Of a stretch of 64,000 nt of DNA, positions 2,597 through 36,310 are shown piece by piece. A model generated the notes under the pieces. It was given only the letters and a program-made list of their open reading frames with translations. It was not told the origin of the DNA and ran no database searches. The DNA is taken from the NCBI GenBank assembly GCA_047285535.1, contig JBJBDC010000001.1:1280136-1344135 (forward strand), in the 5' to 3' direction. Each line of letters opens with the position of its first letter. Position 1 is the stretch's first letter. The translations under genes and the position numbers were made by a program. The DNA is from Synechococcus sp. (GTDB taxonomy: Bacteria > Cyanobacteriota > Cyanobacteriia > PCC-6307 > Cyanobiaceae).

Positions 2597-3191
2597 GTCA
2601 ACGGGCTGATACTAATAGCCTTTACAAGACTCCGATCCTGCCGCGTCAATTGCAAGCTGGCATTCAATTTACCAACGAGACAACCAAGAACCCAGCTTTA
2701 GCAATAGATCTGAGAGAACATTAAAAGCTGTTGGACCTACTATCTGAAGCTACAAGTAGCTACAAAAGTGGCGGTCAAATAACTGGATCTATCACACCAC
2801 ACTGCTGCCTTCATGGCCATCAGCTGCTCCAAGTCATCCAGCAGTCCATCATCCGTATCAGCCACTGCCTTGCCTTGAGTAATAAGGTTACGCAGGTCTG
2901 CTTAGCAAACCGGAGGGGAAGGAGCTGGTGCTGAAGCGTTCTGTTCTGCCAGCACAGCCTTGCCCAGATCACCTAGAGCACTACTTAGAAGCTAATGCTG
3001 CCGTTTCGCACAAGCCTGTGCTTGATCAAGCACCTGGGGGTTAAGGCTGCTGCCAAAGGCTGCAGCATCAGTCCTGTTAGTGCTGAATGAGCTGGACACC
3101 GAGCGAATGCAATTAAGCGACTGGGCAACAGATAGTGACCCACATAAAAGGTCATAGCCCTCAAGGGATATAGATGAAAATGGGTCTCCAC

Positions 3192-3268
3192 AAAAAAAGA
3201 ACGGTTGCATTCTCAATGACCGTTCCTTAGGGGTGTGAGGTGAAGCGCATGCTCCCCAGCTCGCTTCA
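3192..3268 (-). ncRNA. Candidate Yfr1-like sRNA (hairpin - CCUCACACC - terminator)
   Basis: 5' stem 3241-3247/3262-3268, unpaired CCUCACACCCC, 3' stem 3199-3205/3219-3225 followed by U7. Confidence 0.55.
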
Positions 3269-4051
3269 GCATCAATATGAATGCAATTGAGTGGGTAACA
3301 GTGGATGAAGGTGAGTTCATCGCCTTTTGAACATCGCCTTACGCATCGGGAACAAACACACAGCTGGCAAAACTCTGCGCTGCAACGGACAACCCAATAG
3401 GGGCAAGAACTCTGCTTCTTGAAGACCAAGGCTTAGGGCCAGCCAGCCAGATGGTGTACGTCAATGTTTTCACGTAAAAGAGATGACCGGCTTGAAAAGC
3501 TAAGCAAAAAGCAGAGCAACGAAGTCAATAATGGCTTCATGACCTAAAGACGATGGAATCTGTGTGCACCCTCCATTTGAAACCAATGAACGTTCCTATC
3601 AGATTCCTGAATTCGTCATTAGGATTCTGAAATCTATTAACCACAAATTCCCTGAAGATTCTAAACAAAAGACAATCCTATTTCTGTTAAGCATCTTTTG
3701 ATGCTATGTCTAGGCTTGATGGCAATGTGGCTATCAACCGGTATTATTTTTGGCGCGTGAGCAAGGGGTAAGCTTTGCGTGAATCAAACCGGCAACCTTT
3801 TCGTCACCACTGACTCACTTTGACTGCATGAATTAGCTCACTTCCACGCAATTGAAAAATCCAATCGCAATCAAAAACCGCATGAGGCCATTAATCACAA
3901 CACTAGGCCCGTTTGGATCGCTGCTTTCTGTCTTGCATTTCCGCTGATTGGATTGGGTGACTTCTAGCCTTAATTATTGATGGAGATTTAAGTCTTATAT
4001 CGTTTTGCTTTTAGGAGCATGTCGCAATTTTAATTGAGACCAGATGCTGAC

Positions 4052-5317
4052 TCAATCGAGCAGCTCCATCACCCTGGCCACATCTGACCATGAAGGCCTT
4101 GTATACGCCTTTAACACCTTTGACATCCCAGACTGTGCATGTCTAGTTATTTCATAAAGGATACAAGGGGAGACACTATGAATCCCAAGCTGAGCAACAA
4201 CATGTGAACGCAAAGCACGACTCTTAATGCCATAGCGTTTCTTGCAGTTCACTGACCATCGGTGACTAAATAGCTTTAGAGAAGGATCATAAGATTTAGG
4301 AAAGACAAGCTCATGCGATGTATTCTTAATTACTTCAGGCAGCAGCTCTTCTAAAACTGCTTTTAGCTTTGAGCAAATAGGAACTTTTCGTACATCTTTT
4401 GCTCCACCTTTCAGCCTTCGTTCAATCGCTTCAGTTTGCCATTCAACAAAGCTTATCGACAATTTGGACATGTCTATGTCGCAATATCTCAAACCTTGGT
4501 GATCCGTAGCTCGACAACCTGTATAAAGTTGCAGGAAAAATCCTAGGTCTTTCAACATCAATGCTTTTTGCTTGGCTTGTTCAAGCACTAGGGGATCTAA
4601 AGATTCTTGTTTATCTGATGTCTTTAAGTTTTTCTTGAGGCCAGACCAAACATTAGTTCTAACTTCTCCTATATCAATAGCCCACGCCCAGAACGCAATT
4701 AGTGTTCCTAATTCAGTCTTGACACTAGAAGGCTTCTTTTGTTCAAGAAGATAGGCTTTGTATACAGCTGCTTGTTTTCGATCAATACCATCCAAATAGT
4801 CACTGCCGTACCACTCAGCCAACCGCTTTAAGCGTCCACGCCAAGACTGCTCTGTCGTAGCGGCTGGCTGTTCTGCTTTGAGTCGCCGGTCAATCCACAT
4901 CAGGTAGCTAGTAGAGCCCCTATGAGCAGCTTCCAGGGGCTTGCGCAGCTTCTGTCGCGCGGCAAAGGGCAATCCCTGCTTCTCAAGCTCCTCACAGCTG
5001 GAAAGAACGGAATTGATTTGATCTTCAGTGAGGCCGATGCTCTTCAGGCGTTGATCAAGACGACCAAGAAAGTTCTCGTCAACATGAGGTCCTCCGTCTT
5101 GCTCACCCGCTTGACCAATGGGATCTAAGCCACGCTTGTCTTGAAAGTGCTTGTCAATCTCGCGCAGAATTCGAGTTCTGTTGTTGAGAGCTTCAGCGTG
5201 GGTCTTACCAGCTTTCCTAACGACACTACTGGTACCCATCACCTTTCTGAGTGGGTTAGGCACAGCAACACGGATGTAGAAGCCGCTTCGGCCTGGGATA
5301 GTTGTAATGGCTCCCAT
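4052..5317 (-). CDS. Tyrosine recombinase/integrase with arm-binding N-terminus
   Basis: FYIRVAVP N-terminus, LYTGCR (catalytic R), RKVPI, RALR (HxxR position), TRH and C-terminal AY. Confidence 0.85.
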   Translation of the reverse strand: MGAITTIPGRSGFYIRVAVPNPLRKVMGTSSVVRKAGKTHAEALNNRTRILREIDKHFQDKRGLDPIGQAGEQDGGPHVDENFLGRLDQRLKSIGLTEDQINSVLSSCEELEKQGLPFAARQKLRKPLEAAHRGSTSYLMWIDRRLKAEQPAATTEQSWRGRLKRLAEWYGSDYLDGIDRKQAAVYKAYLLEQKKPSSVKTELGTLIAFWAWAIDIGEVRTNVWSGLKKNLKTSDKQESLDPLVLEQAKQKALMLKDLGFFLQLYTGCRATDHQGLRYCDIDMSKLSISFVEWQTEAIERRLKGGAKDVRKVPICSKLKAVLEELLPEVIKNTSHELVFPKSYDPSLKLFSHRWSVNCKKRYGIKSRALRSHVVAQLGIHSVSPCILYEITRHAQSGMSKVLKAYTRPSWSDVARVMELLD

Positions 5318-5401
5318 AACCAACCAGTGTATCTACAAACTGTACCTACACTGACTCCGCAGATCCCAGTTCAGCACTAGTCACAATCGTTTTCGTTCGC
5401 C

Positions 5402-6226
5402 ATGAAGATAGCCAGCTGGAATGTCAATTCAGTGCGCACTCGCCTGGATCATGTTCTGAATTGGCTTGAGCAAACGGGATCAGACCTGCTGGCATTACAA
5501 GAGACAAAAGTGGATGATCCCCAGTTTCCAATAGAGCCATTTCTCCAAAGGGGATATCAAGTTCAGATTTACGGACAAAAGGCCTACAACGGCGTTGCCC
5601 TGATCAGTCGCACACCCCTTGAAGATGTTCGTAGGGGTTTCGTGGGGGAACTGGCCGACGACAAGGAGGCGCAGTCGCTTGATTCTCAAAAGCGTGTCAT
5701 CAGCGCACTGATCGATGGCATCCGCATCGTGAATTTATACGTCCCCAATGGTTCAAGTCTGAGCTCTGATAAGTACGGCTACAAGCTCAATTGGCTGTCC
5801 TGCCTTGGGCGCTACCTCAGAGCCGTGACAACACGAGAGGAACCACTCTGCGTGATGGGAGATTTCAATATCGGTCTTGAAGCTCGAGACCTCCCTGATC
5901 CAGAACGTTTATCCGGTGGAATCATGGCCTCAGATCGTGAAAGGGATGCTTTAACGACAGCGCTTGGTCCCGATCTTCAGGATGCATTCCGACTCTTTGA
6001 ACCCAACAGTGGCCATTGGAGCTGGTGGGATTACCGCAGTGGGGCTTGGGATAGGGACCGCGGCTGGCGTATCGATCACATTTACCTCAATGAAACGCTT
6101 CGAGAGTTAGCTCGAAGCTGCTTCATCGATAAACAAGAACGAGGACGAATCCAACCCAGCGATCATGCACCTGTTCAGGTGGACCTTGCCTGGGAGTTTG
6201 AGGAGGATGAAGAGAACGAGGACTGA
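5402..6226 (+). CDS. xth: Exodeoxyribonuclease III
   Basis: IASWNVNS, LQETK, GDFN, RIDHI, SDHAPV motifs. Confidence 0.97.
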   Translation: MKIASWNVNSVRTRLDHVLNWLEQTGSDLLALQETKVDDPQFPIEPFLQRGYQVQIYGQKAYNGVALISRTPLEDVRRGFVGELADDKEAQSLDSQKRVISALIDGIRIVNLYVPNGSSLSSDKYGYKLNWLSCLGRYLRAVTTREEPLCVMGDFNIGLEARDLPDPERLSGGIMASDRERDALTTALGPDLQDAFRLFEPNSGHWSWWDYRSGAWDRDRGWRIDHIYLNETLRELARSCFIDKQERGRIQPSDHAPVQVDLAWEFEEDEENED

Positions 6227-21189: not shown

Positions 21190-22255
21190 TAAAGTAAAGC
21201 CAATTATTCAAACCAATATCAAATGGACGAGCATAATAGCGCGAGCAAAAACTAACGAACTTGAAATTTAGCCAACCAGCAAAGGGACATCATTGATGCA
21301 AACAATTGCGATGCACCGCTCCAATTGCAGATTCAAACCAACAGCAAACCATCAAAAAACAATTAAAGCCTTTAAGCGCACTGCATTAAACCCAGTAGCC
21401 AGCTAGTTACTTTGAAACACAAAAACCAGACAGTATTTCTCAAAAGGATAGAGCTGGTAGATCACCTCAATTAGCTTGACCCTTAAATGGGAAATTATTC
21501 AGCACAACCGATCACGATTGTCTCTACATCCAAAGAGAACCGGCAAACATATGGCCTGAACAATTGATTACCAACCTGCTCACATGCAATTTGTCATTAC
21601 TTTCATCTTCGAGACCAAACACGCATCAAGATCAGAAGGAACGGCATTATCACCTGCGTCGATCTTTGACTTGAAATAGATGCAAGTTGTGCCAAAGAAT
21701 GATGAGGGAAAGTCGAAGCGATACTTCCCAGATGCGCTGTCAGAGAAGAGGTTGTCTTATTCGCTCCTTCGCGTGACTGGCTAAAACAATACTTCAAAAT
21801 AAAGGCCGAGCCATGAATAACCTAGAGCTTCAAGTGAAAAAGAAACGCTACGGTCACGGGCAAGGCCTAGAAGCTTGGCCTGAAGAGACACCCTATCAAT
21901 GTTCCCTTGGCAAGGATGCCAGAGCATTCGGACCTAAGGAGGCAAAATGCCTCTCCTCATAAACTTGTATTTTTCATTACAGAGTGCATGGCCCATCCTG
22001 ATGAAAGCGACATTCAATCCTCGCCGTCAGTTAATTCATTACAGCTGGTGAGAGCCAATTGAGCCAGCTTGGGCGAATCACCATCAAGAGGTGTGTTGTA
22101 GGTCGTGATGTATTTGAGGGAGAAAGTCCTCATACATTGTGCACTTCACGAGAATGACGAATGCTCCTTGCTGATCAACCATAAAGCCAGTTAAAATTTA
22201 ATTTATCCTGGAACTTCTTTTTGAGCTTTACTAACCAAGCCTGCAACATGCATGA

Positions 22256-23032
22256 ATGAAACACATTGATCTGAACGGTGGGCTCGTCATGGTGACTGGT
22301 GGAGCGGGATCGATCGGAAGCGCCATTGCAATCGAGTGCGCCCGCGCAGGTGCAGCGGTTGCTGTTTGTGACATCAATGGCTCAGCAGCTGAAGATGTTG
22401 CCGTTGACATCCAACGCAATGGAGGGAAAGCTGCTGGCTACAAAATGGATGTGCGCAACCGTGAGGATGTCTGCGACGTCACAGCTAAGGCGATCGAATT
22501 TCTAGGGCCTTTACGAGGTCTCGTGACGGCTGCAGGGGTACTGCGAACAGATCCGATCGAAACCCAGGATGGGGAGCATTGGCGGGCGGTGATGGCAGTC
22601 AATGTTGATGGCACCATGCACGCTGTGCAAGCGGCAATTCCGCATCTGGAGGCCAACGAAGGTGCGATCGTCACATTAGGCAGCGTTTCAGCATTCATTG
22701 GATCGAATGATGGCGGGGCTTACACCACCTCGAAAGGAGCTGTTCTAAGTTTCACTTACGCAGCAGCGGGAGAACTTGCAAGTCGAGGTATTCGAGTCAA
22801 CAATGTCGCTCCTGGATGGGTGGATGGTGGTTTCACGCATCAAGCTCTAGCAACTAGCAACAAACCAGAGGAGCTCCGTTTACGCGCCAACCAACTCCAC
22901 CCTCTTGGTCGAATGGCCAAACCTATTGATGTGGCTAATGCTGTGGTATGGCTGCTGTCCGATCAGGCGAGCTTTGTTACTGGATCAATGCTGCTGGTCG
23001 ATGGTGGTTTCATGATCCAACACAGCGCATAG
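22256..23032 (+). CDS. Short-chain dehydrogenase/reductase
   Basis: TGGAGSIG, YTTSK (YxxxK), IRVNNVAPG, VDGG. Confidence 0.92.
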   Translation: MKHIDLNGGLVMVTGGAGSIGSAIAIECARAGAAVAVCDINGSAAEDVAVDIQRNGGKAAGYKMDVRNREDVCDVTAKAIEFLGPLRGLVTAAGVLRTDPIETQDGEHWRAVMAVNVDGTMHAVQAAIPHLEANEGAIVTLGSVSAFIGSNDGGAYTTSKGAVLSFTYAAAGELASRGIRVNNVAPGWVDGGFTHQALATSNKPEELRLRANQLHPLGRMAKPIDVANAVVWLLSDQASFVTGSMLLVDGGFMIQHSA

Positions 23033-23092
23033 ACAAAACCAAGAAGAGTTGCCCTGATTAATAATAGTCCCCAGTAAATCTCAGAAACCTGA

Positions 23093-23440
23093 GTGGCAAA
23101 ACAAAATCTAACCAATCTAGATTTCATGAATTTCTTCAACACCACGAAACAGTCATTCAGAAATAGGGCAACTGACCACTGTGAAGACACATCGTTAGCA
23201 GACAAAGATCTATCTCCCTTGAAAAAAAGGGAAAGATTTGCAATACTCTTCGTCCTACCCCTATTGCTTGTATTGCTTTCCTGTGAAGACTGGACGAACA
23301 AAAGCAAACGGACTTGTGCATTAGTTACTGCAGGCCAGATTAATGATGCAGAAGCAATGAAACGCTTAAAAATGCAAAAAATAGAAGGCAAATGGAGTGA
23401 TGAAGTCACTGTTTCCAACTACTGCCATTACTACCAGTAG
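23093..23440 (+). CDS. Hypothetical, possible lipoprotein
   Basis: Hydrophobic stretch ending VLLSC; start uncertain. Confidence 0.4.
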   Translation: MAKQNLTNLDFMNFFNTTKQSFRNRATDHCEDTSLADKDLSPLKKRERFAILFVLPLLLVLLSCEDWTNKSKRTCALVTAGQINDAEAMKRLKMQKIEGKWSDEVTVSNYCHYYQ

Positions 23441-23461
23441 ACTTTTCAAAAGGCGCAAATC

Positions 23462-23788
23462 ATGAGTCAAGCAGTGCGCAACCTATCCGTACCCATTTTA
23501 ATCGTCGTAGTTTTTTCTGCGATAATGCTTAATCAGAGAAACTTAAGAATAAACAGCTTTAAGAATGGAGCTGCTTGCATTTTAGGAGGAGTAAATTCAT
23601 ACCCAGCAAAAGGAAGCTGGACAGAAAAATGCGACAACTATTTCAACTACAAGATAAAAAATCTAAAGGCGGAACTAGACAATAATCCAGAAACTGGATT
23701 AACAAGAAACGAAAGAGCCAAACTAATCAGGCAAATAAATACGCTGAATTCACTCAAAAAAAATGGTGCGTTCCCAGAACAGGAATAA
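23462..23788 (+). CDS. Hypothetical membrane-anchored protein
   Basis: N-terminal TM, Cys pair. Confidence 0.45.
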   Translation: MSQAVRNLSVPILIVVVFSAIMLNQRNLRINSFKNGAACILGGVNSYPAKGSWTEKCDNYFNYKIKNLKAELDNNPETGLTRNERAKLIRQINTLNSLKKNGAFPEQE

Positions 23789-24681
23789 CAATCAAGCAAT
23801 CACAAATAATTGAATAATGATCACAAGGAAACAAGACGCATGAAGCACCATGCCCCAATAAGCCCAGAAACTGACCTGAAAAGCTTTCTACAAGACATTT
23901 GTTTCGAGCATGATAATCATTGAGTTGTTCTTATTTCATACCACTCAAAACCACCGAAATCAAGAGACTAAAGCTTTGCAGCAATCCGCGAAAAAGACTT
24001 CACAGAAAAGGATAAAAAACGATAATGCAAACTATAACTATGCCTGGGAATAGTTCTCACAATCTCTCTGATTAACTCAGGACAACCAGAATGAGAGAAG
24101 AGTTCAAACATCAATAAAGTGGAAGAGCCACCTCTACCTGCCGATAACCTCACAACGAGACCGTAAGTAGATTGACAGCAGATAAATAAATAACAGAAGA
24201 TAGATTTTATCTAGGCCATCTGAGGAAAGCCTAATGAGAAGTGACAGCACACAGGGTTAACAACCCACGGACTAACATGGCCCTATACATGATTGAGGTT
24301 GATTCACACCTACTTAGCAGTTGGAGAGGCAACGTCTAGTGAAGAGAGAATATCAAACAGCGAATGACTCATCCGATCGAAGCAAAAAGAAAGTTTCAAC
24401 TACTTAAGTAAAGAGCTAAAAGCTCAAAGACAGGATGAGATTCACTTTGAACAAGAAGCAAAGAGTTTCAATGGTTCATCCTGTAGTCAAACAGAAAATA
24501 TAGAAAAAAAGCATGAAGAGCAGCTTTTTCCAAGTCAAAAGGAATGCAGCTTGTTTGACAGGGTGTGGGGATGAAGGTGCTGATTGCCACAGTCGATTCG
24601 AGCGTAGGGTCATAACAGTCCCAATAGCCATTGCGAAAAAAAGGACATGGGGTAAAAAGAGCCAAGTAATGGACTTGAGAT

Positions 24682-25365
24682 GTGTTTGTAACCACTTTTG
24701 GCCAAAAAGGAGGCGTTGCCAAAACTTGCACGAGTATTCATCTTGCTGCGCACTGGGCAGCAAGTGGGCGTTCGGTTGTCCTCGTTGATTCAGATCGAAA
24801 TCGATCAGCTACAGCCTATGCAGCAAGAGGCCATCTCCCTTTTGACGTCGTGCCGATGGAAGCAGCTGCCAAAGCAACAAGAAAGGCGGAGATTGTGGTA
24901 ACGGACGGACAAGCCAGTAGCAATGAGGAGGAGCTGAAAAATTTAGTGGAGGGATCTGATTTAATTATTCTCCCCACCACACCACAAAGCAGATCAATAG
25001 AATTGACCATTGAAATGTCATCTATGCTCAACAAATTTGACATCCCGTATGCGGCACTAATCGTTAAGGCTGACGCTCGAAAGAAGTCGTCTATTCAAGC
25101 CTCAAGAAATACATTAAGTGGGTTTAATATCAAAGTTCTTAATTCGGAAATTCCACTATTAAATGCCTTTGAGAATGCTGAAGCTGAGGGTGTCACTGTG
25201 GACAAAGCTGTCACAAAGAGCGGACGTTCTGATAAGAGAAGGATGTTGGGTCTTTTTGCCTATTCAAAAGCTTGTACGGAGATCGAACTGTTAATGCCTA
25301 GACCAAAAATCATCCCCATGCCCATCGGCTGGAACGTTTCCCGTATTGAAGATAGAGTGGCTTAA
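24682..25365 (+). CDS. ParA-family ATPase (orphan)
   Basis: Deviant Walker A GQKGGVAKT, LVDSDRNRS. Confidence 0.88.
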   Translation: MFVTTFGQKGGVAKTCTSIHLAAHWAASGRSVVLVDSDRNRSATAYAARGHLPFDVVPMEAAAKATRKAEIVVTDGQASSNEEELKNLVEGSDLIILPTTPQSRSIELTIEMSSMLNKFDIPYAALIVKADARKKSSIQASRNTLSGFNIKVLNSEIPLLNAFENAEAEGVTVDKAVTKSGRSDKRRMLGLFAYSKACTEIELLMPRPKIIPMPIGWNVSRIEDRVA

Positions 25366-26083
25366 TTGAAGCAACCTGGTTTGAACAAAGTGACGACAGC
25401 CCAGTCCTAAACTGGGTAATATACTGTTTACTGAAGTACCGATGCTGATAGTATTGTTGAGATCTTTGGCATGATTAAAGCAAGCAATAAAGATATATTC
25501 GATTCAATCCTGCGTTTTAAAGGCCTCAAGCCCAGTGCTAGAAAGCGCACAGAGAATCAAGCAGGAATTAGTCGAGACTCAAGAAGACTGGCTGAAATCT
25601 GCTTCAATTGAATGTACCCACTGTAGAGAAAGAGATTGTAAGCAACCATCGTCCGGCATGGACATCGATGAGGAGTGGACTGAGATTCAAAAAAACAGGA
25701 GCACCGCTCCGATTGCCCATCAACTTGCAGCCAGCTATATGGAGAGGCGATTCTTACTCCAATATTGATTTACAACGAAACCGCATCAAGAGTTCAACGC
25801 GCCACTTAACAACCAGCCCGTAGCGCAGAGCTAGTGCAGATCTTGTGCACTAGCATAAAATCTTCTTACGATGCCGTAAAGAGCACACTCTAAAAACCCT
25901 AAAAACCAGAACAGGCTACAAGGCAACAATCAAAAAAAATGGATCTCAACTAAATCTCAAAAGAAGACAAAGTGCCCCTGAAGGGATCAACGAGATCAAC
26001 TGTTATTAATGTTACCCTCTAACAAATTTTCGGCAAATACTTTTTTCTTAGAGATATCATTTAAGTCAAGCCACTTGTAACAT

Positions 26084-26374
26084 CTAGACGACAAACGGTT
26101 TTCCAAGGCTGGACCTGATACCCATAAAGTAGGACTCAATAGCCCAATCCATCGCTTCACCTTTCTTTGAGCAGGGGTTCTGAGCTACAAATTCTTGCCT
26201 CAACAGCCAAATTTCATTCCATTGATTTCTAGCTTCATCTTTACTGAAGGGCTGTCCGTAAAGGCCATGAGCATTCATCTGAAGAAACCTGTTCGGATCC
26301 TTTAAATACTCATTCACTCGGTCCTCCCTTAAATGAGGGATCCATGAGTATTTGCGGTGATTTATTTCAGGCAC
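26084..26374 (-). CDS. Hypothetical protein
   Basis: 96-aa ORF with protein-like composition. Confidence 0.45.
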   Translation of the reverse strand: MPEINHRKYSWIPHLREDRVNEYLKDPNRFLQMNAHGLYGQPFSKDEARNQWNEIWLLRQEFVAQNPCSKKGEAMDWAIESYFMGIRSSLGKPFVV

Positions 26375-27122
26375 TACTAACCGACTTCCAATTAATTACC
26401 GAAAAACGAAAATAACTACTGAGCCATGCTCAAGAAATTGAGTTAAGAAAGAGGATAGTTTGACAACAATCAACTCAATAATTATGGCCAATTCCTACCA
26501 AACTTTTGGCAAAAACCATCTACAACACTAAAACTTCTAGCAGATCAGAGCATGGAATTACATTGCCTTTCCAAGTCAGATCTAATCCGATAACACTTGC
26601 TCGATGACAGCAGAATGATACAGACGACATGACCAACACCCCCACGAACACGAACCCAGGAAGTTCAGATTCCAGGCATTTCCTCCTGATGTGAAACTGA
26701 CGGGATTTCAAACTAATACATACTTTGTATGACCATATTTATCATCAGGAAAACTTCTATCGTCGAAGAAGAAACAGATGCTTATGGCAGAAGACTCACA
26801 AAAGATTTTAGATCCGGCCTGGTTCAAGATAGGTAGCTGATTGCTGTGGCAAGGAGACTCAAGTTGCAACGCGCTTCTGAGAGTTGCTCTGAACCAAAAC
26901 AAGAGGTCTACCCATCCCTTGCAATCACAGAGATATTAATCTCACTAGCCACACACGAATCAATTCGAGGCTATTTGTGGGCTTCAGCTCGATGAATTGA
27001 AAGTCCCCCACAACACCAGAGAGAAGAGAGTTGCAGACGACTGAGATTTGACCTTGCCCTCCGATTAGATCTTCAGAGAAGCGCGACTCCTGCACACAAC
27101 CAGGTTATCTGATCGCAAGGCA

Positions 27123-27386
27123 TTGGAGTGCTGGTTGGTGAATTTCCGGCAAAAGGTCTGCCTGCACGACAGCCCCATAAGCACTGAGATGCACGTAAAG
27201 AGCATGGCACCGAAGAGCGTGATTGAAGCTGGAATGAAAGGCCGTTCAACAGTGATCACCATTCTTGTTGATCGTCGAGGTGAAAATAAGTATGTATCCC
27301 TACGGACACAGAAGACCTCAAACGCTTGTATGGGCTTGGGTAAAGAATGCCTTGGGGGGACATTCTTACGTAGAACGGTCAGTTGA
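27123..27386 (+). CDS. Hypothetical protein
   Basis: 87-aa ORF, no family recognised. Confidence 0.4.
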   Translation: MECWLVNFRQKVCLHDSPISTEMHVKSMAPKSVIEAGMKGRSTVITILVDRRGENKYVSLRTQKTSNACMGLGKECLGGTFLRRTVS

Positions 27387-27897
27387 GAAGACGACCGTTC
27401 TTTTTTATTGATCAAGAATGTAACCCGCACATAGATCTATCTGCGAGCAGTCTTGCTTAAGCAGAAGACTCTAACTTTCCATACTTACGGAGTTGATGCA
27501 ATTCTTGGTGATGCAGTTTTCCCACAAGAAATACATGCTTAGTTCGCTGTATTGATCGCATGTCATCAACAACGTTCCGTGGCAACTTATACTTCATTTT
27601 TAGACTTGGTAAAATCTGATTGATTAACAGGTCTGACTTGATTAGCCCACAATCGGACTTTGTATATCAACCAACTTTCAACCGATATAAAATTGATGCT
27701 GCAGCTCTACTCTCTCTAAGACGACCGGAGAAACCGGCAAAAGTTCGCCCAGCATTTCCATCTATTCATACCAAACTAACAGAAAAAGGACTGATTCGTC
27801 AATCCAATTTGCAATCTCCCTTGGCCATATTAAACCAATTGAGGATGCACTGGAATGGATTGCATCTTGTAGCAAAGACTCATTTCTTTGATAATGA

Positions 27898-28074
27898 TTA
27901 GAGTCCCTTCTGCTGTCGTATCACCCAGGCTGAAGCTGCTTGCTGTTGCTTCCATGCCACAAGTAATTTTTTGGCAATGGATTGCAACTCTTCAACATCT
28001 TTTGAGCGATCAATCTCTCGTGAAAATTTCTCAATTTCAAACATCTGTCCGACAGTCAAAGCAATTGGATCCAT
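27898..28074 (-). CDS. nblA: NblA-like phycobilisome degradation adaptor
   Basis: 58 aa MDPIALTVGQMFEIEKFSREID...LLVAWKQQQAASAWVIRQQKGL resembles the NblA L(S/T)xxQxF helix-loop-helix pattern. Confidence 0.6.
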   Translation of the reverse strand: MDPIALTVGQMFEIEKFSREIDRSKDVEELQSIAKKLLVAWKQQQAASAWVIRQQKGL

Positions 28075-28272
28075 TGGTCTTTTTGCTTGGCCAACAAAAA
28101 ATAACTCTTTCGTCCAATCAACGCAAATCAATCAAGTAGTTGTTGCAACCGATTTAACGGTTTTATGCTCAAGTCACTACATTCGTCTTGTTACAGATTA
28201 ATGCCGAACAACCCTGATGACGTTGATCGGCACCGTTTATCACCCTAAAAAGCATTGTGCCAACAAGTTTTA

Positions 28273-28461
28273 ATGCACTTATCCTGGGAGCAACATCTGG
28301 AACTTTCAAAAAAAGTATCAGACACTGCAGACAGCAACAAAGGTATCGCCCTTGCGCTTATGGGCATTGGCTTATCGATGCTGTCTAAGGATCTTTTGGC
28401 TGAAGAATTACAAGAAAATCAAGCTGCGAGCATCCACCAAATCAATCCTTATCAGTGCTGA
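28273..28461 (+). CDS. Small hypothetical protein
   Basis: 62-aa ORF with a central hydrophobic helix. Confidence 0.5.
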   Translation: MHLSWEQHLELSKKVSDTADSNKGIALALMGIGLSMLSKDLLAEELQENQAASIHQINPYQC

Positions 28462-28716
28462 CTTAAATGGTGATCATCCTGTCATCAGCTCTGGCGGCCC
28501 GAAAGAGATCAAATTCAGGAGCATCGAGTCCTGCTTGATAGTCGTCAGAAAACCAAAGCCCCTCCATGTTCGGTGCTGTGAGTGCTCGGCTTTCATGCGG
28601 TCTCACTAGACCGTTTGCGCTGCCTAGACATCGACAGCTGACACGTTCTAATTGCAAAAGAGTATCAACAACAATTAGCCTCCTTGCTGAACAGAATCAC
28701 TGCAAAGAATACAGCT

Positions 28717-28735
28717 ATTGATTGTGATTCTCAAC
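28717..28735. promoter_or_regulatory. Fur-box-like site upstream of ferritin
   Basis: ATTGATTGTGATTCTCAAC, imperfect 19-bp AT-rich inverted repeat ~90 bp before the ATG. Confidence 0.5.
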
Positions 28736-28827
28736 AGCAAATCTTGTCTTGATAATGTTCGGTTCATTCTCCTTACATCGTCGAAAAAATGTAATAGAAC
28801 GGAGGAGTCCTCGTTTCGGACACCCTC

Positions 28828-29409
28828 ATGACTCAATCCACAACCCAAGCCAAGATCAGCATCGCCACCGGACCTGCTGGTCGTGCCATGGCAGAAGCCA
28901 TGTCACCGGAGATGGTCAGCCAGCTCCAGGCCCATCTCAATCTGGAACGGCAATCCTCTGCTGACTATTTCGCTGCAGCCGTCTGGTTTGCAGAGCGCGA
29001 ACTCACTGGTTTTGCTGAACATCTGCGTGATGAAGCCAAGCAGGAGCAGGAGCATGCCGCAAAATTCGCCGACTATCTGATCTCCCGGGGTCAAACCGTT
29101 GAACTCGATACGATCGAAGCACCTCGCCAGACATGGCCCGATCCAGAAGAGGTGATCGCCAACGTTTTCAAGATGGAAGCGGATGTCACCAGTTCTGTGC
29201 TGCAGCTGTATGCCACAGCAGAGCGCGATGTTGATCAACGCACAACGGTTTTCCTTGATCCCGTTGTTGATGATCAGCGAGCCTCAGAACATGAAGCCGC
29301 TTACCTGCTGGGCCGGGTGAAGTATGCCAATGGTGAGCGTGCGGCGATGATGATCATTGACGCCGAACTCAGAGAAGATGAAGCGGAACCCGCAACGCTT
29401 CAGGGTTAA
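28828..29409 (+). CDS. ftn: Non-heme ferritin
   Basis: LERQSSADY, EAKQEQEHA (ExxH), MEADV, FLDPVVDDQRASE ferroxidase pattern. Confidence 0.92.
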   Translation: MTQSTTQAKISIATGPAGRAMAEAMSPEMVSQLQAHLNLERQSSADYFAAAVWFAERELTGFAEHLRDEAKQEQEHAAKFADYLISRGQTVELDTIEAPRQTWPDPEEVIANVFKMEADVTSSVLQLYATAERDVDQRTTVFLDPVVDDQRASEHEAAYLLGRVKYANGERAAMMIIDAELREDEAEPATLQG

Positions 29410-29460
29410 GACTCAGTTCAAGCTTCTTGAACGATGCGTTTTCAATGTGGTCTGAATACG

Positions 29461-29485
29461 GCATGGCCTCAAGTTGAGGCCATGC
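29461..29485. terminator. Perfect hairpin downstream of ftn
   Basis: GCATGGCCTCA-AGT-TGAGGCCATGC; no clear U-tract. Confidence 0.55.
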
Positions 29486-30263
29486 GGAAATAACCACCAT
29501 GCTCTTTTTTAGTGCAGATCTGCAAGCAATGCTGAAACGGACGAGTAGAAACCTTCTATGCCCCTAGAGCAGGATTTCACCCGAATACATGGTTTTCGAC
29601 TGAAGAGTGAATCTACAGCTAGCCAACCCGTAGGAAGCAAGAGCTTACGCAGGACTAAATTCTTGACCGTTGGAAGAATGGCCTCGCCCTCACCACTCAA
29701 CTTGTTGACACTCTCCAAGATCAACCACTCCTCAACCCCACCAAACCCAACGTCATCAGTGCCTGATGATTGAGACCCTGCTAACGGCTTCGCATTGCCT
29801 GTGAGAACTCCATTACACCAGAGAGGCCATCTGGTTGGCCTGCTTGCAATAACAGCTTCACGACCTTCGATCCACCGGGATGCAGCTCTCTAGATCCCTT
29901 GATGCAAAGAAGAGGGGTGTGCCCGACTGAGGATTTCAAGACTTGCAGATGCCCGTGATAGCAGCGGCAATCGAGTAGGTCCACCAAAGATTGAACCTCT
30001 TACTGACGGCTGACTTATCGCTTCATCCATCGATCGATGAACAGCTTTAAACTGCCATCACCGATGAACTCGATCAGCGCAGATACCTACAGCGTCTGCA
30101 ATATCCCACCCGAATCCGTTGTGTCAAACGATTCCCTAGATCTCCTCGACCTTTTTGATAAGTAACTCACTAGCTGATTAGGGACCATCGCATTGGCGGT
30201 GGACTTTGAAGGAGAAACGAGCGCAGCCTTCAGCAAGGCAACAAGCCTTAGCAGCTTGCTTGT

Positions 30264-30605
30264 TCACGAATCAAATTTTCTTTTGAAGTAGTTGATTGCG
30301 ATTTCTTCTGGCTTAAAACCTTCCAATACAAGCGCAGCAAGCTCTAACAGCCATGACCTCCTCATCCGTTTCTGATATTGATGTCCATCAATCGAGCAAG
30401 GAAACAGCACGTCATAGCCCCTATGTCCAAGGGGAGTCTTTTCTTCTCTTCTCTTGATCTGGTACCCCGCTTCCTGAAGAATGTTGCGGGACAGCTCGTA
30501 TGGGGTGACACACCGCTGAGCTGCCAACCGTTGAACCCTGCCAATGGCCAACCGTGTCTGATTGGAATCAACACTGCTCTGATCAGAACTGGCGACAAAG
30601 TTCAT
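30264..30605 (-). CDS. Hypothetical protein
   Basis: Protein-like ORF; likely start MNFVASS. Confidence 0.5.
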   Translation of the reverse strand: MNFVASSDQSSVDSNQTRLAIGRVQRLAAQRCVTPYELSRNILQEAGYQIKRREEKTPLGHRGYDVLFPCSIDGHQYQKRMRRSWLLELAALVLEGFKPEEIAINYFKRKFDS

Positions 30606-31302
30606 CAGCAGAAAACGATCTGTCTCACTAAGTCTGCATTGATCCAACCGACACTGCATTGCTGGATTGCTGCATTGATGATTTTTATTAGCAGCGATGC
30701 ATTTCTCAGGGCTGATGATGCGCTAAGAATCACTGCTGCTATTGACGGCGAACAATCCAGACCAATCACAACTGAGTCATACAAAGCTGTTAATTGGCAG
30801 CACTACTGGAGAGGCAGGCAGCACCTCCAGCACATCACCGAAGGGTTGAAGAAGTTGAACTACCGCCCATAACTACTACCAAACGGATCTGGGATGGATC
30901 CTGGAAGATGTTTCAACTGATCAGCGGGAGGGCCCCTAAGGCATCAAGTAGTGGACTGGACTTTGTAAGCGTTCCCATTCGGATGGGAAGCGATAACAAA
31001 CTGCGTCAAAGACAGAGCACATTCAGGACAGATCTTAGTGAGGATCAAGGCTTTCAGGATTGCACAGGGTCATTTGTGTGGCATGGTCTGCTCCTTTCCG
31101 ATCATCAGGTCCACCTCATGGGCTTGCTGGTCATGATCCGCACCATCTGCGCTTTCGCTGCTGGTTTCACTCTGGCGGCATGGATTGGCTTTGATGTCAG
31201 CCCTAGCTATGTCGATAAGGACCGCATCCTTCGTGAACCTTTCGCCTTAATCCCGCTGGGTGCTGCGAACGTTGTCATCACCCTTGGCACTGGCGCTTTT
31301 CT

Positions 31303-31716
31303 ATGAATCCAACGAGCACGTCAATGATCCGTACCACACTCATCACTGCAGCACTACTCACCACATCGACTCCAAATTCAGCATTGGCGTCAGAAAACCC
31401 TGAGCCTTGTCTTCAAAAGCCAGTTGTAATGGTGGTTGATGGAGTCACCAATGATCGTCAGCAGATGGCGATTTACGGGCAAGCACTAAAAGAATCGGGA
31501 CTCCACCAACACGCTGGCTCTTATTACATGAACGATCCACGACCGATACGCATTCTTGAAGGGAACCGAGACCAGAATCATGTGACATTGCTGATCAATT
31601 TCCCTTCAGAATGTGCAGCGCTTGACTTCTGGAATTCTCCGATTTACAAGCAAAAAATCCTGCCTCTTAGAAAAAATGCCGGCGATTACACGATTGAACT
31701 CTATCGACTCCTTTGA
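31303..31716 (+). CDS. Secreted DUF1330-like protein
   Basis: Signal peptide; ILEG, LINFPS..AALDFWNSPIY...LPLR. Confidence 0.75.
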   Translation: MNPTSTSMIRTTLITAALLTTSTPNSALASENPEPCLQKPVVMVVDGVTNDRQQMAIYGQALKESGLHQHAGSYYMNDPRPIRILEGNRDQNHVTLLINFPSECAALDFWNSPIYKQKILPLRKNAGDYTIELYRLL

Positions 31717-31938
31717 CAGGATCCGCATCACACTGAGGACATCATCCTTCAAGAGAATATCAGCCCATTTGATTGCATGAATGAGCGAATCAAAGGGTCA
31801 TGGCACAAGGGTCATGGCACATTGGTGTCATGCGTCCTCGTCTATTCGAGCGCTTAACCACACCCTCCTGTTCGGTTTTAGGTATTCCCTCCGCGTGAAC
31901 AACCGATCTAAATCAGAGGTATTCCTGCAAAGTCCATC

Positions 31939-32649
31939 ATGACTACTCGTCCGGAATTACGTGAAGACGCCCTAATGATGGCAGTTGGCATCCTGCAATC
32001 AGCAAAGGATCCTGAACATCTTTTCAAGCATGCCAAATACTTATCTATGGCTACTAATAAATCAGAGCTTCAAGAGCAGGGTGTCAAACAGCTCTTGGAT
32101 CATCCACAGCTTCAACCTTTGATAGAGGAACGATTTGCCATCCCGTGGCCCTCACTCGACGAGATGAGTGCAATGCCAAAAGGGAGCCTTGGTTTTTGTA
32201 TGCAGCAAAGACAGAGAGGCCTGGGCATTGATCAGCTACCAATACCATTGCCAACAACGGACAAGAAGGAGGATTACGTCATGTACAGGACCTCAATATG
32301 TCATGACCTCCACCATCTCGTTCTGGGTCTACCAATCTCGGCAGGTGGAGAAGCATCAGACGCTGCTTACACCTTAATTAAAAAAAGGATGCCACTCCAC
32401 TTAGGGTTGTTAACGACTTGGTTAACTCACGGACTCATTGAACCCGAAGAACATCGAATGATCTGGGAAGGAATTTGTTTCGGAGCGAGGGTTGGTTTAG
32501 ATGGGCCTTTCTTAGATGCTTATCGTTGGGAAGAAGGATGGGAGCGCCCCTTGGAAGACTGGCGAGCGGAACTTGGTCTTCTTCCTCTCCTGGAAAAGTC
32601 TCCTTTTCCAGATGAAGTCCATCGCTGGGAGGCACTTCATCCTGACTGA
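31939..32649 (+). CDS. Coq4-like protein
   Basis: MPKGSLG, HDLHHLVLG...GE motif, RWEEGWERPLEDWRAELG. Confidence 0.8.
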   Translation: MTTRPELREDALMMAVGILQSAKDPEHLFKHAKYLSMATNKSELQEQGVKQLLDHPQLQPLIEERFAIPWPSLDEMSAMPKGSLGFCMQQRQRGLGIDQLPIPLPTTDKKEDYVMYRTSICHDLHHLVLGLPISAGGEASDAAYTLIKKRMPLHLGLLTTWLTHGLIEPEEHRMIWEGICFGARVGLDGPFLDAYRWEEGWERPLEDWRAELGLLPLLEKSPFPDEVHRWEALHPD

Positions 32650-32838
32650 TTCACTCGCGTGAAGACCCAGAGTCAAAGAACTTTATTCTCAACTGCAGCC
32701 AATATTGATGCACACTTTCATGAGGGCCTTTAACTTGCTTGTGGTCAACAAGCAATAAAAACCCTTGTCATTGCACGGCTAGAGAATACTTTTTGCTAAT
32801 TGTAATCATACTAATTCCGCGCCAATTCACAGCTTCCG

Positions 32839-34569
32839 TCAGAATCTAAAACTAGTTTTCAATACCCCTCCGAAGTTATTAAATGTACTGCCAGGAACAT
32901 TAAGGTCTATACCGGTCACGGCGCCAAGAGGGCGACTTAGGTAGTAGATCGCAGGCGTAATCGTGATGTTATCGGACACCTGAAATGCATACCATAATTC
33001 CCATGCATAATTCCCGTCAGCAATAAAATCACTCCCATTAAATTGATCGGATACGTTCTCCCAACTGGTTACGAAAGTTGGCTGCCCGACGGCTATTCCC
33101 AACGTATTACCTTTCAAGAAAGTATCGGCCCATTCCAGGCCGACGTACCATGATTGAGAAACTGCAGTATTAAAAAACTTAGGGCCAGAACCCTCAACCA
33201 ACTGAGATGTATTCTTTGAAATAATATTACTATAGCCCCATCCAAGACTAATGCTGGGGATCCACGAAGGTTCCTTGGGAGTCCACCATGCGCTTAAGCC
33301 AAATGAATTTGAATTGCCAAATTCGGAAAGCGAATATGCAAATGGAGTGGCCGATCCTCCATAGATACCAGCACCATTTTCGCCTGAAGAATAGTTGTAA
33401 GCAGCAGCTACTCCCCAATTATTGGGTGCATATGCAATTTGAACCGTACCGTTGGACGCTGCTCCGTTAGTCGCAATGCCACCGATGCTGGGGTTGGAAT
33501 TTGCACCCCCATCAAAGGCGTTGGAGTAAGCACCATCGAAGGCATCACCACCAGTCACAACATAGTTTGCACTGATACTAAAGGCATCCTTTTCGAACGA
33601 AAGACCAGCACCTTGCCCCAGGGCGAGGTTATAGGCCTGAGGGGCACCGGCATAGGCAAAGAAGGCAAGAATAGACTCAGTGGTGTAAGCACTAGGCCAT
33701 ACCGCCAGCATTTCGTCCTGACGAACTAAGGCACCTAAAGTAATTGTGAGATTGTCCCTGAATGGGAATTGATAAAAGAGGCGATTGACGCTCAATGAGT
33801 TCGACTTAGAAGGCTCTTGGAATGCAACTTCTAATTCATTAAGACCAACATATGTGTCCTCGCCAAATACAGAATTCGAAAAGTTGCCAGCACGCAGCAT
33901 GGTGCGCAGTAGATCCTTACCCGTGAAGCTGGTGTCTATATAGATCCTCTGATCGTAATTAAAGGTGGTGGCACCAGTTAATGCAGCAGCTTCGTCTGCT
34001 TTAGGCGTTTCAGATGTGCCTAATCTCTTCCATACACCACCAATTTTTTCGAAAAGCTCTTCAGTTCTGCCTTGCTTGGCATCGCCACCAAAGCTGTTCG
34101 CACCAATCACGAAGGTGGCTTGACCTTTCAGCTTGGTGGTGGTGGAGAACTGAGTGGCTTCCAGTTCACCAACACGGGCTTCCAGTCCGTCCACACGGCC
34201 CTTGAGGATGGCGAGTTCCTTCTCGAACTCTTTCATCAGGCGCTTGAGTTCGTCGGTCACTTCGGTGACGCGATCGAGACAGGCGTTCAACAGAGCAGCC
34301 GCTTCAAAGCGGGTCATCGCCCTGTTGCCGCGGTAGGTGCCGTTGGGGTATCCAGCGACGCAGCCGTAACGCTCGATCAGGTTGCTCAGGGCCTGATAGG
34401 CCCAATCCGTGGGGTACACATCAGAAAACTGAGTGATGCTGGTGACTTGTTCACCAGTGGCGGTGTAGTCAGATACACCGTTGATGTTGAGCTCAGTGGC
34501 GTTCGCAGCCATAGGGGCCAGAAGGCCAAGAGCTGCTGGAGCCACCAGCAGTTTGTGGAACAGTTTCAT
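32839..34569 (-). CDS. som: Som-type outer-membrane porin with SLH domain
   Basis: MKLFHKLLVAPAALGL, FSDVYPTDWAYQAL, QFSTTTKLKG, terminal TSFRF. Confidence 0.95.
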   Translation of the reverse strand: MKLFHKLLVAPAALGLLAPMAANATELNINGVSDYTATGEQVTSITQFSDVYPTDWAYQALSNLIERYGCVAGYPNGTYRGNRAMTRFEAAALLNACLDRVTEVTDELKRLMKEFEKELAILKGRVDGLEARVGELEATQFSTTTKLKGQATFVIGANSFGGDAKQGRTEELFEKIGGVWKRLGTSETPKADEAAALTGATTFNYDQRIYIDTSFTGKDLLRTMLRAGNFSNSVFGEDTYVGLNELEVAFQEPSKSNSLSVNRLFYQFPFRDNLTITLGALVRQDEMLAVWPSAYTTESILAFFAYAGAPQAYNLALGQGAGLSFEKDAFSISANYVVTGGDAFDGAYSNAFDGGANSNPSIGGIATNGAASNGTVQIAYAPNNWGVAAAYNYSSGENGAGIYGGSATPFAYSLSEFGNSNSFGLSAWWTPKEPSWIPSISLGWGYSNIISKNTSQLVEGSGPKFFNTAVSQSWYVGLEWADTFLKGNTLGIAVGQPTFVTSWENVSDQFNGSDFIADGNYAWELWYAFQVSDNITITPAIYYLSRPLGAVTGIDLNVPGSTFNNFGGVLKTSFRF

Positions 34570-34575
34570 TTTCGG

Positions 34576-34585
34576 TCCTCACACC
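34576..34585 (-). promoter_or_regulatory. Yfr1-type sRNA target site / RBS in the som 5' UTR
   Basis: GGTGTGAGGA just before the ATG, complementary to the Yfr1 core ACUCCUCACAC. Confidence 0.7.
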
Positions 34586-34710
34586 AAAAACTTGCGTTAC
34601 TCAGACGCACTGCTTCGATCCTCAACAGTGCCAACGAACCATCCCGTTTACGCATCCTGCGTGCAATCGATTGGGGTCAGTTTCAGCTTTGCTGCTAATC
34701 GGTAGGCACT

Positions 34711-34734
34711 AAAAACCCCGCTCGTGGCGGGGTT
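34711..34734 (-). terminator. Rho-independent terminator
   Basis: AACCCCGC/GCGGGGTT stem with U-tract on the minus strand. Confidence 0.7.
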
Positions 34735-34798
34735 CACATCCATAGATTTGAACTAGACATTCAACTATCTTTCTTCTACTCCCATCCAAATTTAAACT

Positions 34799-35062
34799 TT
34801 AAGAATCCTTCTCTTTGGATAAACGTTTTTTATTAGCGTTCCATTTCTTCTTTTTTCCAAACCACTTTAGTTGCCATTGTCTTGCTCCTGCTTGTGCGCC
34901 AGAGGCTCTTTGTAATCCGGAAAAGACGCGATGCTTTTGCCTTGCCAAGGCGTTGTGTTGAACAAATTCTTGAGTTGCACTGACTCCATTAAAGAAACTT
35001 GAGGCAAGAGTCAAAGACAGGAGAGTGAGCATGCCAATTTTTCTGTAATTTTTAAGGTCCAT
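34799..35062 (-). CDS. Small basic secreted hypothetical protein
   Basis: Signal-like N-terminus, Lys/Trp-rich tail, followed by a terminator. Confidence 0.45.
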   Translation of the reverse strand: MDLKNYRKIGMLTLLSLTLASSFFNGVSATQEFVQHNALARQKHRVFSGLQRASGAQAGARQWQLKWFGKKKKWNANKKRLSKEKDS

Positions 35063-35230
35063 GATTCAAGGTGCTGTGGAGTCTTTGCCTCCTGTGAACT
35101 CACCTTCTCAGGACTCAACAGATCACTCGATGACCCAGCTCAACCGTGGCTTTGATGTTGCGTACCAAGACCAATCCATTCGCTTCCCTTGCATTCATCT
35201 TTCCTGCCCTAATCAATGGGCATCCAGCAG

Positions 35231-35359
35231 CTTTGAAGTCACCGTGCTGCAGCGTCACCGCTTCCTCGTGCTCGGCGTTGTCGGTTGGATAGAACCTGCC
35301 AAACCATTGTCTAGGCCTCCTTTGAACCACACCCAAACCTTTGTGCGGGCCTAGCTCAT
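35231..35359 (-). pseudogene. Degraded copy of ORF 49938-50174
   Basis: MS*ARTKVWVWFKGGLD...AVTLQHGDFK; TAG at codon 3, frameshift, 3' truncation. Confidence 0.85.
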
Positions 35360-35524
35360 GCTGATCTCCCGAAGCAGCTGACCCAAGGGGCAGCAGGCAG
35401 TGCAGCATGGTGAATCCAACGAAGACCAGTGGCATGGACCCCAGCATGACTCCGGGGCGGAATCAGCACCCCGACTGCACTTCATTGCTCTGTCAGCTCT
35501 GCTTCATCGTTCGGATCATCGGGC

Positions 35525-36310
35525 ATGCCTCTGTCGCGTGATCGCCCCCACCTCCTTAGGTCCTGGCGTGAGTGGTTAAGAGGGACCCTCGATGCTGCCT
35601 TCATGGATCTGTTGCCATGGCTGTTGATGTCATGGATCGGAGGATCCGGCCGTGTGTTGGTGGGTGCTTGCGTTGGTTTACTGCTCACAGCACTGGCTGT
35701 ACTTCTGCGGGGATTGCCCTGGCGCCTGCTACAGCTTGAGGCCCTGGCCACCGTCACCTTTTTCTTGTTTCTGGTGATGGCCTTGCTAGCTCCAGCCAGT
35801 AGTCAGGACTGGCTGGCTGAGCATGCTGATCAACTCAGTGACAGCCTCTTCATGGCCTTTGTACTGGGGGGAAATCTGCTGGGCCGCCCCTTCACCGAGG
35901 ACTATGCCCGCATGGAACTGCCGGAGCATCTGCTTAGACAGGCTCCTTATCGCAAAACCATGATGGTGTTGGCCTGGGTCTGGTTTGCGGCTTTCGCACT
36001 CCAAAGTGCCATGGGGCTTGTGGCTGATCTGGTCTTTGATCAGCCCGATGAACTCTGGTGGGGATGGCTGCTGCCCCTGGCGGTGATCATGGCCGCAATG
36101 ACGTTCACCGAGCAGTTCACAGCATCGAAACGTCAGCAGAGTCGCTTGTCATGGCGAGCCTGTCTGATCTGGTTTCCGACCTATCTGATCCTTTGTAGCG
36201 TCATGGTCCTGACCACGGGAGCTGGGATCTGGCTGGGAGTTCTGTTACTGGGGTTGGGACTGATCGGCACAGGTCTGCGGTGGCGAAAACCCCAAACAAG
36301 TCAGCACTAA
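35525..36310 (+). CDS. Multi-pass membrane protein
   Basis: About 8 TMs, GRPFTEDYAR motif. Confidence 0.7.
   Translation: MPLSRDRPHLLRSWREWLRGTLDAAFMDLLPWLLMSWIGGSGRVLVGACVGLLLTALAVLLRGLPWRLLQLEALATVTFFLFLVMALLAPASSQDWLAEHADQLSDSLFMAFVLGGNLLGRPFTEDYARMELPEHLLRQAPYRKTMMVLAWVWFAAFALQSAMGLVADLVFDQPDELWWGWLLPLAVIMAAMTFTEQFTASKRQQSRLSWRACLIWFPTYLILCSVMVLTTGAGIWLGVLLLGLGLIGTGLRWRKPQTSQH

Follow-up and report, generated by a model that had tools for sequence, protein, structure and literature searches.

The described systems closest to the locus considered here are the small RNA Yfr1 and the RNAs of the Yfr10 type. In Prochlorococcus MED4, Yfr1 pairs with ribosome-binding sites and represses the som porin mRNAs PMM1119 and PMM1121 3.0- and 2.7-fold, respectively; CC-to-GG and UCCU-to-AAAA mutations abolish this repression, and a Yfr1 duplex of only 6 nt still gave a 1.5-fold effect (PMC2796815). 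Yfr10, Yfr12, and Yfr18 of MED4 bear the Yfr1 motif and adjoin Yfr2, Yfr4, and Yfr5, with Yfr10 and Yfr2 located in a genomic island (PMC2518516). Members of the Yfr10 family, examples of which are Yfr104 of MIT9313 and a copy in Synechococcus WH8102, are described as having the motif in common and little shared sequence, structure, or synteny (PMC6778093).

The locus lies on the minus strand of a 64,000-nucleotide stretch of a Synechococcus genome (one contig of 3,025,339 bp, 50.6% GC). We call this whole stretch the window and number positions within it, and we mark positions in the complete contig with G000:C1. A preliminary description of the window had proposed that a small integrase element carries a Yfr1-like RNA complementary to the ribosome-binding site of a som porin gene. 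The sequence-level points of the present account are well supported: the sequence and fold of a hairpin, linker, and terminator, a scaffold that belongs to a second RNA family (family X below), the identity of a Yfr1-type seed, the borders of the mobile element, and complementarity to som (Table 1). On the further question of what the locus does, we put at about even chances the reading that the candidate is an expressed Yfr10-like regulator on a family X scaffold, carried by an integrase element.

Table 1. Features of the candidate locus, the element that carries it, and the predicted som target, in window positions.
Feature	Position	Strand	Basis or remark
Left junction: degenerate copy of the xth 5' end (TTGCAAGCTGGCATTCAATT), one att repeat arm	2650..2669	.	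empty-site alignment, BLAST
Non-integrase cargo, holding the sRNA unit	2670..4051	.	no ORF with a family match
Candidate sRNA unit, ~78 nt: SL1, unpaired linker, intrinsic terminator with U7	3192..3269	(-)	sequence, fold, match to model R1
Terminator hairpin GAACGGUC-UUGAGAAUGC-ACCGUUC, then U7	3192..3228	(-)	sequence and fold
Unpaired linker CCUCACACCCCU, 12 nt	3229..3240	(-)	P(unpaired) 0.998
Seed CCUCACACC within the linker	3232-3240	(-)	A3241 lengthens the match to ACCUCACAC
SL1, 28-nt hairpin, apical loop CUGGGGAG as in family X	3241..3268	(-)	fold and R1 alignment
Possible -10 element CATATT, 5-7 nt upstream of the inferred start	3274..3279	(-)	inferred from alignment with family X homologs
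Tyrosine integrase, 423 aa	4052..5323	(-)	phrog_1, E 4.5e-18
Right junction: other att repeat arm (TAGCCAGCTGGAATGTCAATT), overlapping the xth start	5409..5429	.	empty-site alignment
xth	5402-6226		Exo_endo_phos over the full profile; gene still full length
som porin gene, 576 aa	32842..34569	(-)	NF033921 por_somb, 276 bits; SLH and OprB domains
Predicted target site GGUGUGAGG in the som leader	34577..34585	(-)	exact complement of CCUCACACC; 8 nt to ATG

The claimed arrangement of hairpin, linker, and terminator is present on the minus strand in both sequence and fold: reading from 3269 to 3192, CUGAAGCGAGCUGGGGAGCAUGCGCUUCA is followed by CCUCACACCCCU, then by AAGGAACGGUCAUUGAGAAUGCAACCGUUC, and then by U7. 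Folded alone, the candidate RNA has a minimum free energy of -24.5 kcal/mol, with SL1 at RNA positions 2-29, the unpaired linker at 30-41, and the terminator at 42-74, and the 9-nt seed has a mean P(unpaired) of 0.998. Folded with its flanks, the candidate has a z-score of -2.72, and one of 200 shuffles folds equally well. A 145-aa open reading frame (2992..3429, minus strand) spans the unit, which might accordingly be read as part of a protein-coding gene. We give this reading a next to negligible probability: the frame has no Pfam or PHROG match and runs through the terminator hairpin and U7, and the surroundings of the unit's homologs are not conserved, while the homologs themselves show RNA-like variation.

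Membership in the Yfr1 family itself did not hold up. The Rfam model RF01116 (gathering threshold 38 bits) has no match at E<=10 in 3000-3500, in 3185-3285, or at this place in a genome-wide search, and at the gathering level the whole 64-kb window yields tRNA only, with no RF01116 and no Cyano-1 (RF01701). A canonical yfr1 does exist elsewhere in the genome, at G000:C1:222262-222318 (minus strand, 62.3 bits), and this is the sole passing RF01116 match genome-wide. Judged by these searches, the candidate is neither Yfr1 nor the Yfr1 ortholog. Its likeness to Yfr1 is one of layout and seed: two stem-loops flank an unpaired, C/U-rich seed, so that the motif is single-stranded in a 12-nt linker between hairpin and terminator; CCUCACACCCC is identical to that of the host genome's own Yfr1; and there is complementarity to som ribosome-binding sites. 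The differences are that the hairpins of the candidate are longer and unrelated, that it is located in a mobile element, and that its UCACCUCACAC matches nine of the 11 positions of the ultraconserved unpaired 11-mer of Yfr1, ACUCCUCACAC (PMC2796815), while retaining the Yfr1 8-mer CCUCACAC and the 3' extension CCC. The idea of a Yfr1 mimic therefore survives in the structure, the seed, and the som complementarity, but not in the scaffold, which is a diverged copy from another small RNA family. As a separate observation, three tandem repeats with a period of 686 bp (G000:C1:2029871, 2030557, and 2031243, plus strand) each contain, in sense orientation, all of the 11-mer ACTCCTCACAC, followed after about 11 nt by an ATG, and each has a weak RF01116 match of 13.7 bits.

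The origin of the scaffold is suggested by comparison with related genomes. A BLAST search of the candidate against 46 genomes of the genus matched the terminator alone, in seven other genomes and at a second site in the window. The flanks of these matches contain a common unit, comprising an upstream box (…AAAAATGAGTATGTATCTCTACGGACA…), 22 nt, a -10-like CATCTT, and an RNA, family X, made up of GUGAAGCC-CUGGGGAG-GGCUUC, an A-rich linker, and GAACGGUC-UUGAGAAUGC-GACCGUUC-U6. A model (R1) built from seven homologs, with the candidate left out, matches the candidate over its full length (3193-3269) at 37.5 bits, with E values (1.4e-8 for the window, 6.7e-7 per genome) that are rough because the calibration was shortened; compared with family X, the model takes 6 nt of the candidate linker to be inserted. 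R1 also matches a second site in the window (27340-27406, plus strand, 29.9 bits), with an upstream box at 27290-27303, and a further family X copy lies at G000:C1:882440-882510 (minus strand). Within the genus there are 18 matches, in 11 of the 46 genomes, and outside it a single weak match among 147 genomes of other genera of the family. In an alignment of 21 sequences, itself fitted to the model, 90.1% of cells are paired and 14 of 17 pairs have changed on both sides, a level of covariation reached by none of 500 shuffles, with slid controls far lower. The family X loci recovered from the BLAST flanks have no match at E<=1 to any of the Rfam families. Together these comparisons point to family X as a structured small RNA family, nearly restricted to the genus and absent from Rfam 15; a literature search brought up no description of it, and as that search was not by sequence, we make no claim that the family is unpublished.

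The candidate shares with family X the apical loop CUGGGGAG, the terminator with its loop UGAGAAUGC, the full-length R1 match, and a -10-like hexamer in register with the homologs, CATATT aligning with their CATCTT, AATATT, and AGTATT. In SL1 a C-G pair of most homologs, the innermost of the outer helix, is replaced by G-C, a compensatory change. What sets the candidate apart, besides its carriage inside an integrase element, is the Yfr1-type seed: the linker reads ACCUCACACCCC where family X has an A-rich stretch, and CCUCACAC is present in the linker of the candidate and in none of the other 17 of the 18 R1 matches. The candidate is a diverged copy of family X with an acquired Yfr1-type seed. 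As to conservation of the fold, for which the preliminary description had looked to related elements, the one related element lacks the unit (see below), and the covariation is instead found across the scaffold family.

The upstream box of family X (…GTATGTATCTCTACGGACA…) reads GTA-N8-TAC or a near variant and lies 22 nt from the -10-like hexamer, a spacing taken from genome G027 and from the second copy in the window. As read from the aligned loci, GTA-N8-TAC is perfect in eight of the 18 members, and three more have GTA-N8-TAG. We take GTA-N8-TAC with a 22-nt spacing to be the geometry of NtcA-activated promoters, and on that basis family X may consist of nitrogen-regulated small RNAs. CGRE1, the GntR site of yfr2 promoters, was considered as an identity for the box and rejected, being described as GTTG...GTGATCAC...CAAC. 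The candidate has no upstream box at the expected distance and keeps only the weak -10-like CATATT, which is absent from the list returned by a consensus promoter scan. The loop of family X has a possible partner of its own: a duplex of 7-8 bp, G-U pairs among them, can form between CUGGGGAG and the CUCCUCA motif of Yfr1/Yfr10, at a computed -10.7 to -14.5 kcal/mol, and family X may interact with Yfr1 and Yfr10 as the Yfr2 5' end does. The candidate has both a Yfr1-type motif and the complementary loop (3252-3259, minus strand).

Could the seed be in the linker by accident? The bare 9-mer is not unusual in the genome, with 25 copies against about 23 expected, and on that count the unit might be an ordinary hairpin and terminator that resembles Yfr1 by chance. 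We regard this as very improbable on the evidence of longer motifs and their positions. The 11-mer CCTCACACCCC has five copies in the genome, and each of the five falls in an unpaired segment immediately before the last hairpin of an sRNA-like unit (Yfr1, three Yfr10-like loci, and the candidate); the CCUCACACCCC of the candidate is likewise that of canonical Yfr1 and the three Yfr10-like loci, and is found nowhere else in the genome. By our own arithmetic, the probability of the 11-mer within a linker of about 15 nt is about 1e-6 per linker. A hairpin and T-run follow CCTCACAC in six of 48 occurrences, compared with 0 of 72, 3 of 77, and 3 of 123 for three control 8-mers, and the R1 match (E 1.4e-8) also speaks against accident. 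Across the genus, CCTCACACCCC is present in 45 of 46 genomes at up to seven per genome (reversed control, 0-3), and when one locus per genome was taken in 30 of these 45 genomes, at least three unrelated scaffolds were seen to carry the 11-mer ahead of a terminator.

The Yfr10-like loci were found by a motif scan, which gave four in the genome (L002-L005, at about 446.5, 811.0, 870.0, and 1,638.9 kb of G000:C1). They are laid out as a hairpin whose loop contains CUCCUCACA (the variant CUCCUCAAA at 446.5 kb), an unpaired UCCUCACACCC(C), and a terminator, giving every locus two copies of the motif or a close variant, in the hairpin loop and in the linker. At three of the four, a divergent Cyano-1 (Yfr2-family) match of 53-56 bits lies alongside. 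The copies at 811 kb and 1,639 kb are identical across the 131 nt compared. Like these RNAs, the candidate would be an extra small RNA with the Yfr1 motif on an unrelated, poorly conserved scaffold, in a genus that has several scaffolds with CCUCACACCCC followed by a terminator. The exposed Yfr1 motif that characterizes the type is represented in the candidate by the exposed core CCUCACACCCC, with the 5' CU of the motif, before CCUCAC, changed to CA. In the published Yfr10 the motif lies in a hairpin loop and a Yfr2 homolog is adjacent (PMC6778093, PMC2518516), whereas the motif of the candidate lies in the linker. Adjacency to Yfr2, which is reported for HL Prochlorococcus and seen at three of the four Yfr10-like loci here, is lacking for the candidate, the window having no Cyano-1 match; and unlike the Yfr10-type RNAs, the candidate has a scaffold common to another small RNA family. 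By function, the candidate would fit the loosely defined Yfr10-like class of extra Yfr1-motif RNAs. Since the genome has four more Yfr10-type RNAs and the class is a published one, the candidate is neither unique nor conceptually new.

The proposal that the candidate is carried in a small integrase element is borne out by empty sites in relatives, a flanking repeat, and a tyrosine integrase: the unit sits in a tyrosine-integrase insert of about 2.74 kb in the first codons of xth. In the junction alignment, an imperfect repeat of about 21 bp, derived from the xth 5' end, flanks the insert (2670-5408), and the element provides xth with a new start, ATG-AAG-ATA. At the empty site in genomes G001 and G012, an upstream gene of 107 codons directly abuts xth, and BLAST rows place the two genes next to each other in the same way in G006, G016, G017, G027, G030, and G032. 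The integrase scores 24 bits against Pfam Phage_integrase (PF00589), under the cut-off of 27.1, and has 14 homologs at E<=1e-20 in a large protein database, integrases of 78-79% identity among them; the homologs carry PF00589. Among 46 genus and 301 family genomes, the sole close relative of the integrase is in G007, where a 78% identical protein occupies the same xth site in an element of about 3.8 kb with different cargo (small ORFs); the others are at most 38% identical, and no integrase relatives were found in viral contigs. In the G007 element, R1 finds nothing above 8.7 bits and CCTCACAC does not occur, so the candidate unit is absent there. A family of small tyrosine-integrase elements uses the first codons of xth for integration and replaces the start codon of the gene. 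Another integrase relative in the genome, at G000:C1:617066-618043 (minus strand), is 28% identical and contains five TGA codons, and is probably a decayed copy. The suggestion that the unit may be the only intact cargo of the element agrees with Pfam and PHROG searches of the other cargo ORFs, which gave no match; the cargo DNA (2670-4051) likewise matched nothing in phage records and is present only once in the genome.

The position of the unit within the element raises a different possibility. The unit is on the integrase strand, 783 nt downstream of the integrase stop codon; a consensus scan gives a promoter-like TTGAGT-17-TAAAAT on the minus strand at 4055..4027, and between this and the unit there is just a weak terminator-like site (3809..3790). 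The hairpins might then serve mainly to terminate the leftward transcript of the element from or after the integrase, and the small RNA would be a processing product derived from its 3' end. This is improbable in our judgment, given that the homologs elsewhere are free-standing, with an upstream box and a -10 of their own, and that the similarity of the candidate to them runs through the -10 region.

Several of the features described above would also be expected if the locus were a silent relic, that is, a family X gene captured by, or decayed in, the element, which has lost its regulated promoter and is unexpressed, and whose seed, obtained from a Yfr10-like locus through gene conversion or recombination, is without effect. 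The missing conserved upstream box, the lack of a recognizable gene in the other cargo, and the degenerate left att arm, which suggests an old insertion, all favor this account. So does the apparent uniqueness of the seed-bearing form to this genome: no second copy was found in the 46 genus genomes, in 150 further family genomes, 147 of which belong to other genera, or in two metagenome pattern scans, and these searches accordingly give no sign of purifying selection on that form. The two patterns used for the metagenomes, which gave no matches, were more specific than a chimeric-design pattern, CTGGGGAG-N6-20-CCTCACAC, which was too unspecific, with at least 120 loci in genome contigs and 43 in viral contigs; among 163 such loci screened, one had a T-run downstream, and a similar structure was absent there. 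A source for the seed can also be pointed to, as 14 nt, CCUCACACCCCUAA, are identical between the candidate and the Yfr10-like locus at genome position 870,020, and the A-rich stretch that precedes the terminator in both RNA types, family X and Yfr10-like, is a possible site of exchange. Yet neither helix nor the terminator is disrupted, the seed is accessible throughout, the compensatory pair change in SL1 preserves the helix, and the -10-like hexamer has been kept in register with the homologs. On balance we consider a relic somewhat unlikely.

For the predicted target, the perfect 9-nt complement reported for the som leader is present at the ribosome-binding site: the plus strand at 34577-34585 reads CCTCACACC, and the ATG of som, a minus-strand gene, is at 34569..34567. 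Genome-wide, 143 sites have a perfect complement of at least 9 nt to the 16-nt linker. Eight of these lie at most 16 nt upstream of a plausible start codon, in a scan with K=9 and a filter on upstream open codons, and seven of the eight belong to som porin genes; the eighth is a spurious ORF antisense to an apparent tuf, identified from its peptide by eye. The filter removed the som copy at 820,643, and an earlier scan with K=8 was too noisy. The nine som-type porin genes of the genome (G000:C1, 453.9, 820.6, 844.1, 870.4, 952.5, 1,314.7 [the copy in the window], 1,469.3, 1,811.1, and 1,813.3 kb) have near-identical N-termini, and their leaders are of three kinds, GGUGUGAGGACCGAAA(A)AUG (six genes), GUGUGAGGUUUAAUUUG (two), and GGUGUGAGAG (one). 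The stretch of the window from about 22000 to 36500, which takes in the second family X copy and the som gene, has few long ORFs and is possibly a variable island.

Because the U of UCCU is an A in the candidate, the six main som leaders would pair with it over 9 bp rather than 10, about 2 kcal/mol more weakly: the 9-bp core duplex has a computed energy of -15.6 kcal/mol (-8.6 net of opening), compared with -17.5 (-10.5) for the 10 bp of Yfr1. The two variant leaders (GUGUGAGGU) pair over 9 nt with ACCUCACAC at -15.4, compared with -14.3 for Yfr1 and -13.8 for the Yfr10-like RNAs, and a family X copy without the seed gives positive net energies. The computed duplex of the candidate with one Yfr2 5' end is -21.0 kcal/mol. 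In a genome-wide duplex ranking without accessibility, som was not among the 45 lowest-energy sites listed for any of three small RNAs; as the ranking missed som even for canonical Yfr1, it is uninformative, and target ranking for Yfr1 is described as likewise uninformative in the published work (PMC2796815). Five other small RNAs in the genome have an equal or better seed, so any effect of the candidate may be redundant.

If the candidate is indeed an expressed regulator, which is the reading we hold at even chances, its history might be as follows. An element would have inserted in the first codons of xth, given xth its new start, and brought a small RNA gene as cargo, and a family X scaffold (loop CUGGGGAG, A-rich linker, terminator loop UGAGAAUGC) would have gained an exposed Yfr1/Yfr10 seed, ACCUCACACCCC. 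Transcription could begin from CATATT. If the RNA is transcribed, its unpaired seed would be predicted to pair with the som Shine-Dalgarno sequence and to block translation initiation, as Yfr1 does in MED4, and the 5' motif of the Yfr2 (Cyano-1) RNAs would be a second possible partner; a benefit to the host or to the element may follow. Counting against an expressed regulator are the missing upstream box, a seed that falls one base short of the canonical one, and a G007 element without the unit. A more ambitious version, which we find quite doubtful, is a minimal integrase element whose only functional cargo is a seed-swapped small RNA that enters the Yfr1/Yfr10-Yfr2-som network, with porins lowered or Yfr2 titrated, and with the A-for-U change tuning the RNA toward the two variant som leaders.

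Much of this has precedent: Yfr1-motif RNAs are already described on variable scaffolds and in genomic islands, hypervariable ones in the case of some Yfr10-type members (PMC6778093, PMC2518516). The twist added here is a modest one, a sharply delimited integrase mini-element together with a seed transplanted onto the scaffold of another family. If the candidate is expressed, the Yfr1 seed would be a portable module, able to sit on unrelated scaffolds and to travel on a very small site-specific element, and a recipient cell would gain a further means of acting on porin synthesis and on the Yfr1/Yfr10-Yfr2 network. Marine picocyanobacteria have few protein regulators, and the locus would then bear on how regulatory RNAs spread among them. 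Were the reading of a seed-swapped RNA to be true, there might be consequences for iron uptake or phage adsorption. A by-product of the analysis may matter equally, namely family X, which shows covariation, an NtcA-like box, and complementarity between its apical loop and the Yfr1 motif. Outside the cyanobacteria, the nearest parallels are enterobacterial: IpeX of the DLP12 cryptic prophage, which acts on OmpC and OmpF, and InvR of Salmonella SPI-1, which acts on OmpD, both of them horizontally acquired RNAs that repress host porins. The concept would be the same, a mobile or island-borne small RNA acting on a porin mRNA of the core genome, but the phylum differs, there is no sequence relation, and the seed of the candidate copies that of a resident, conserved small RNA.
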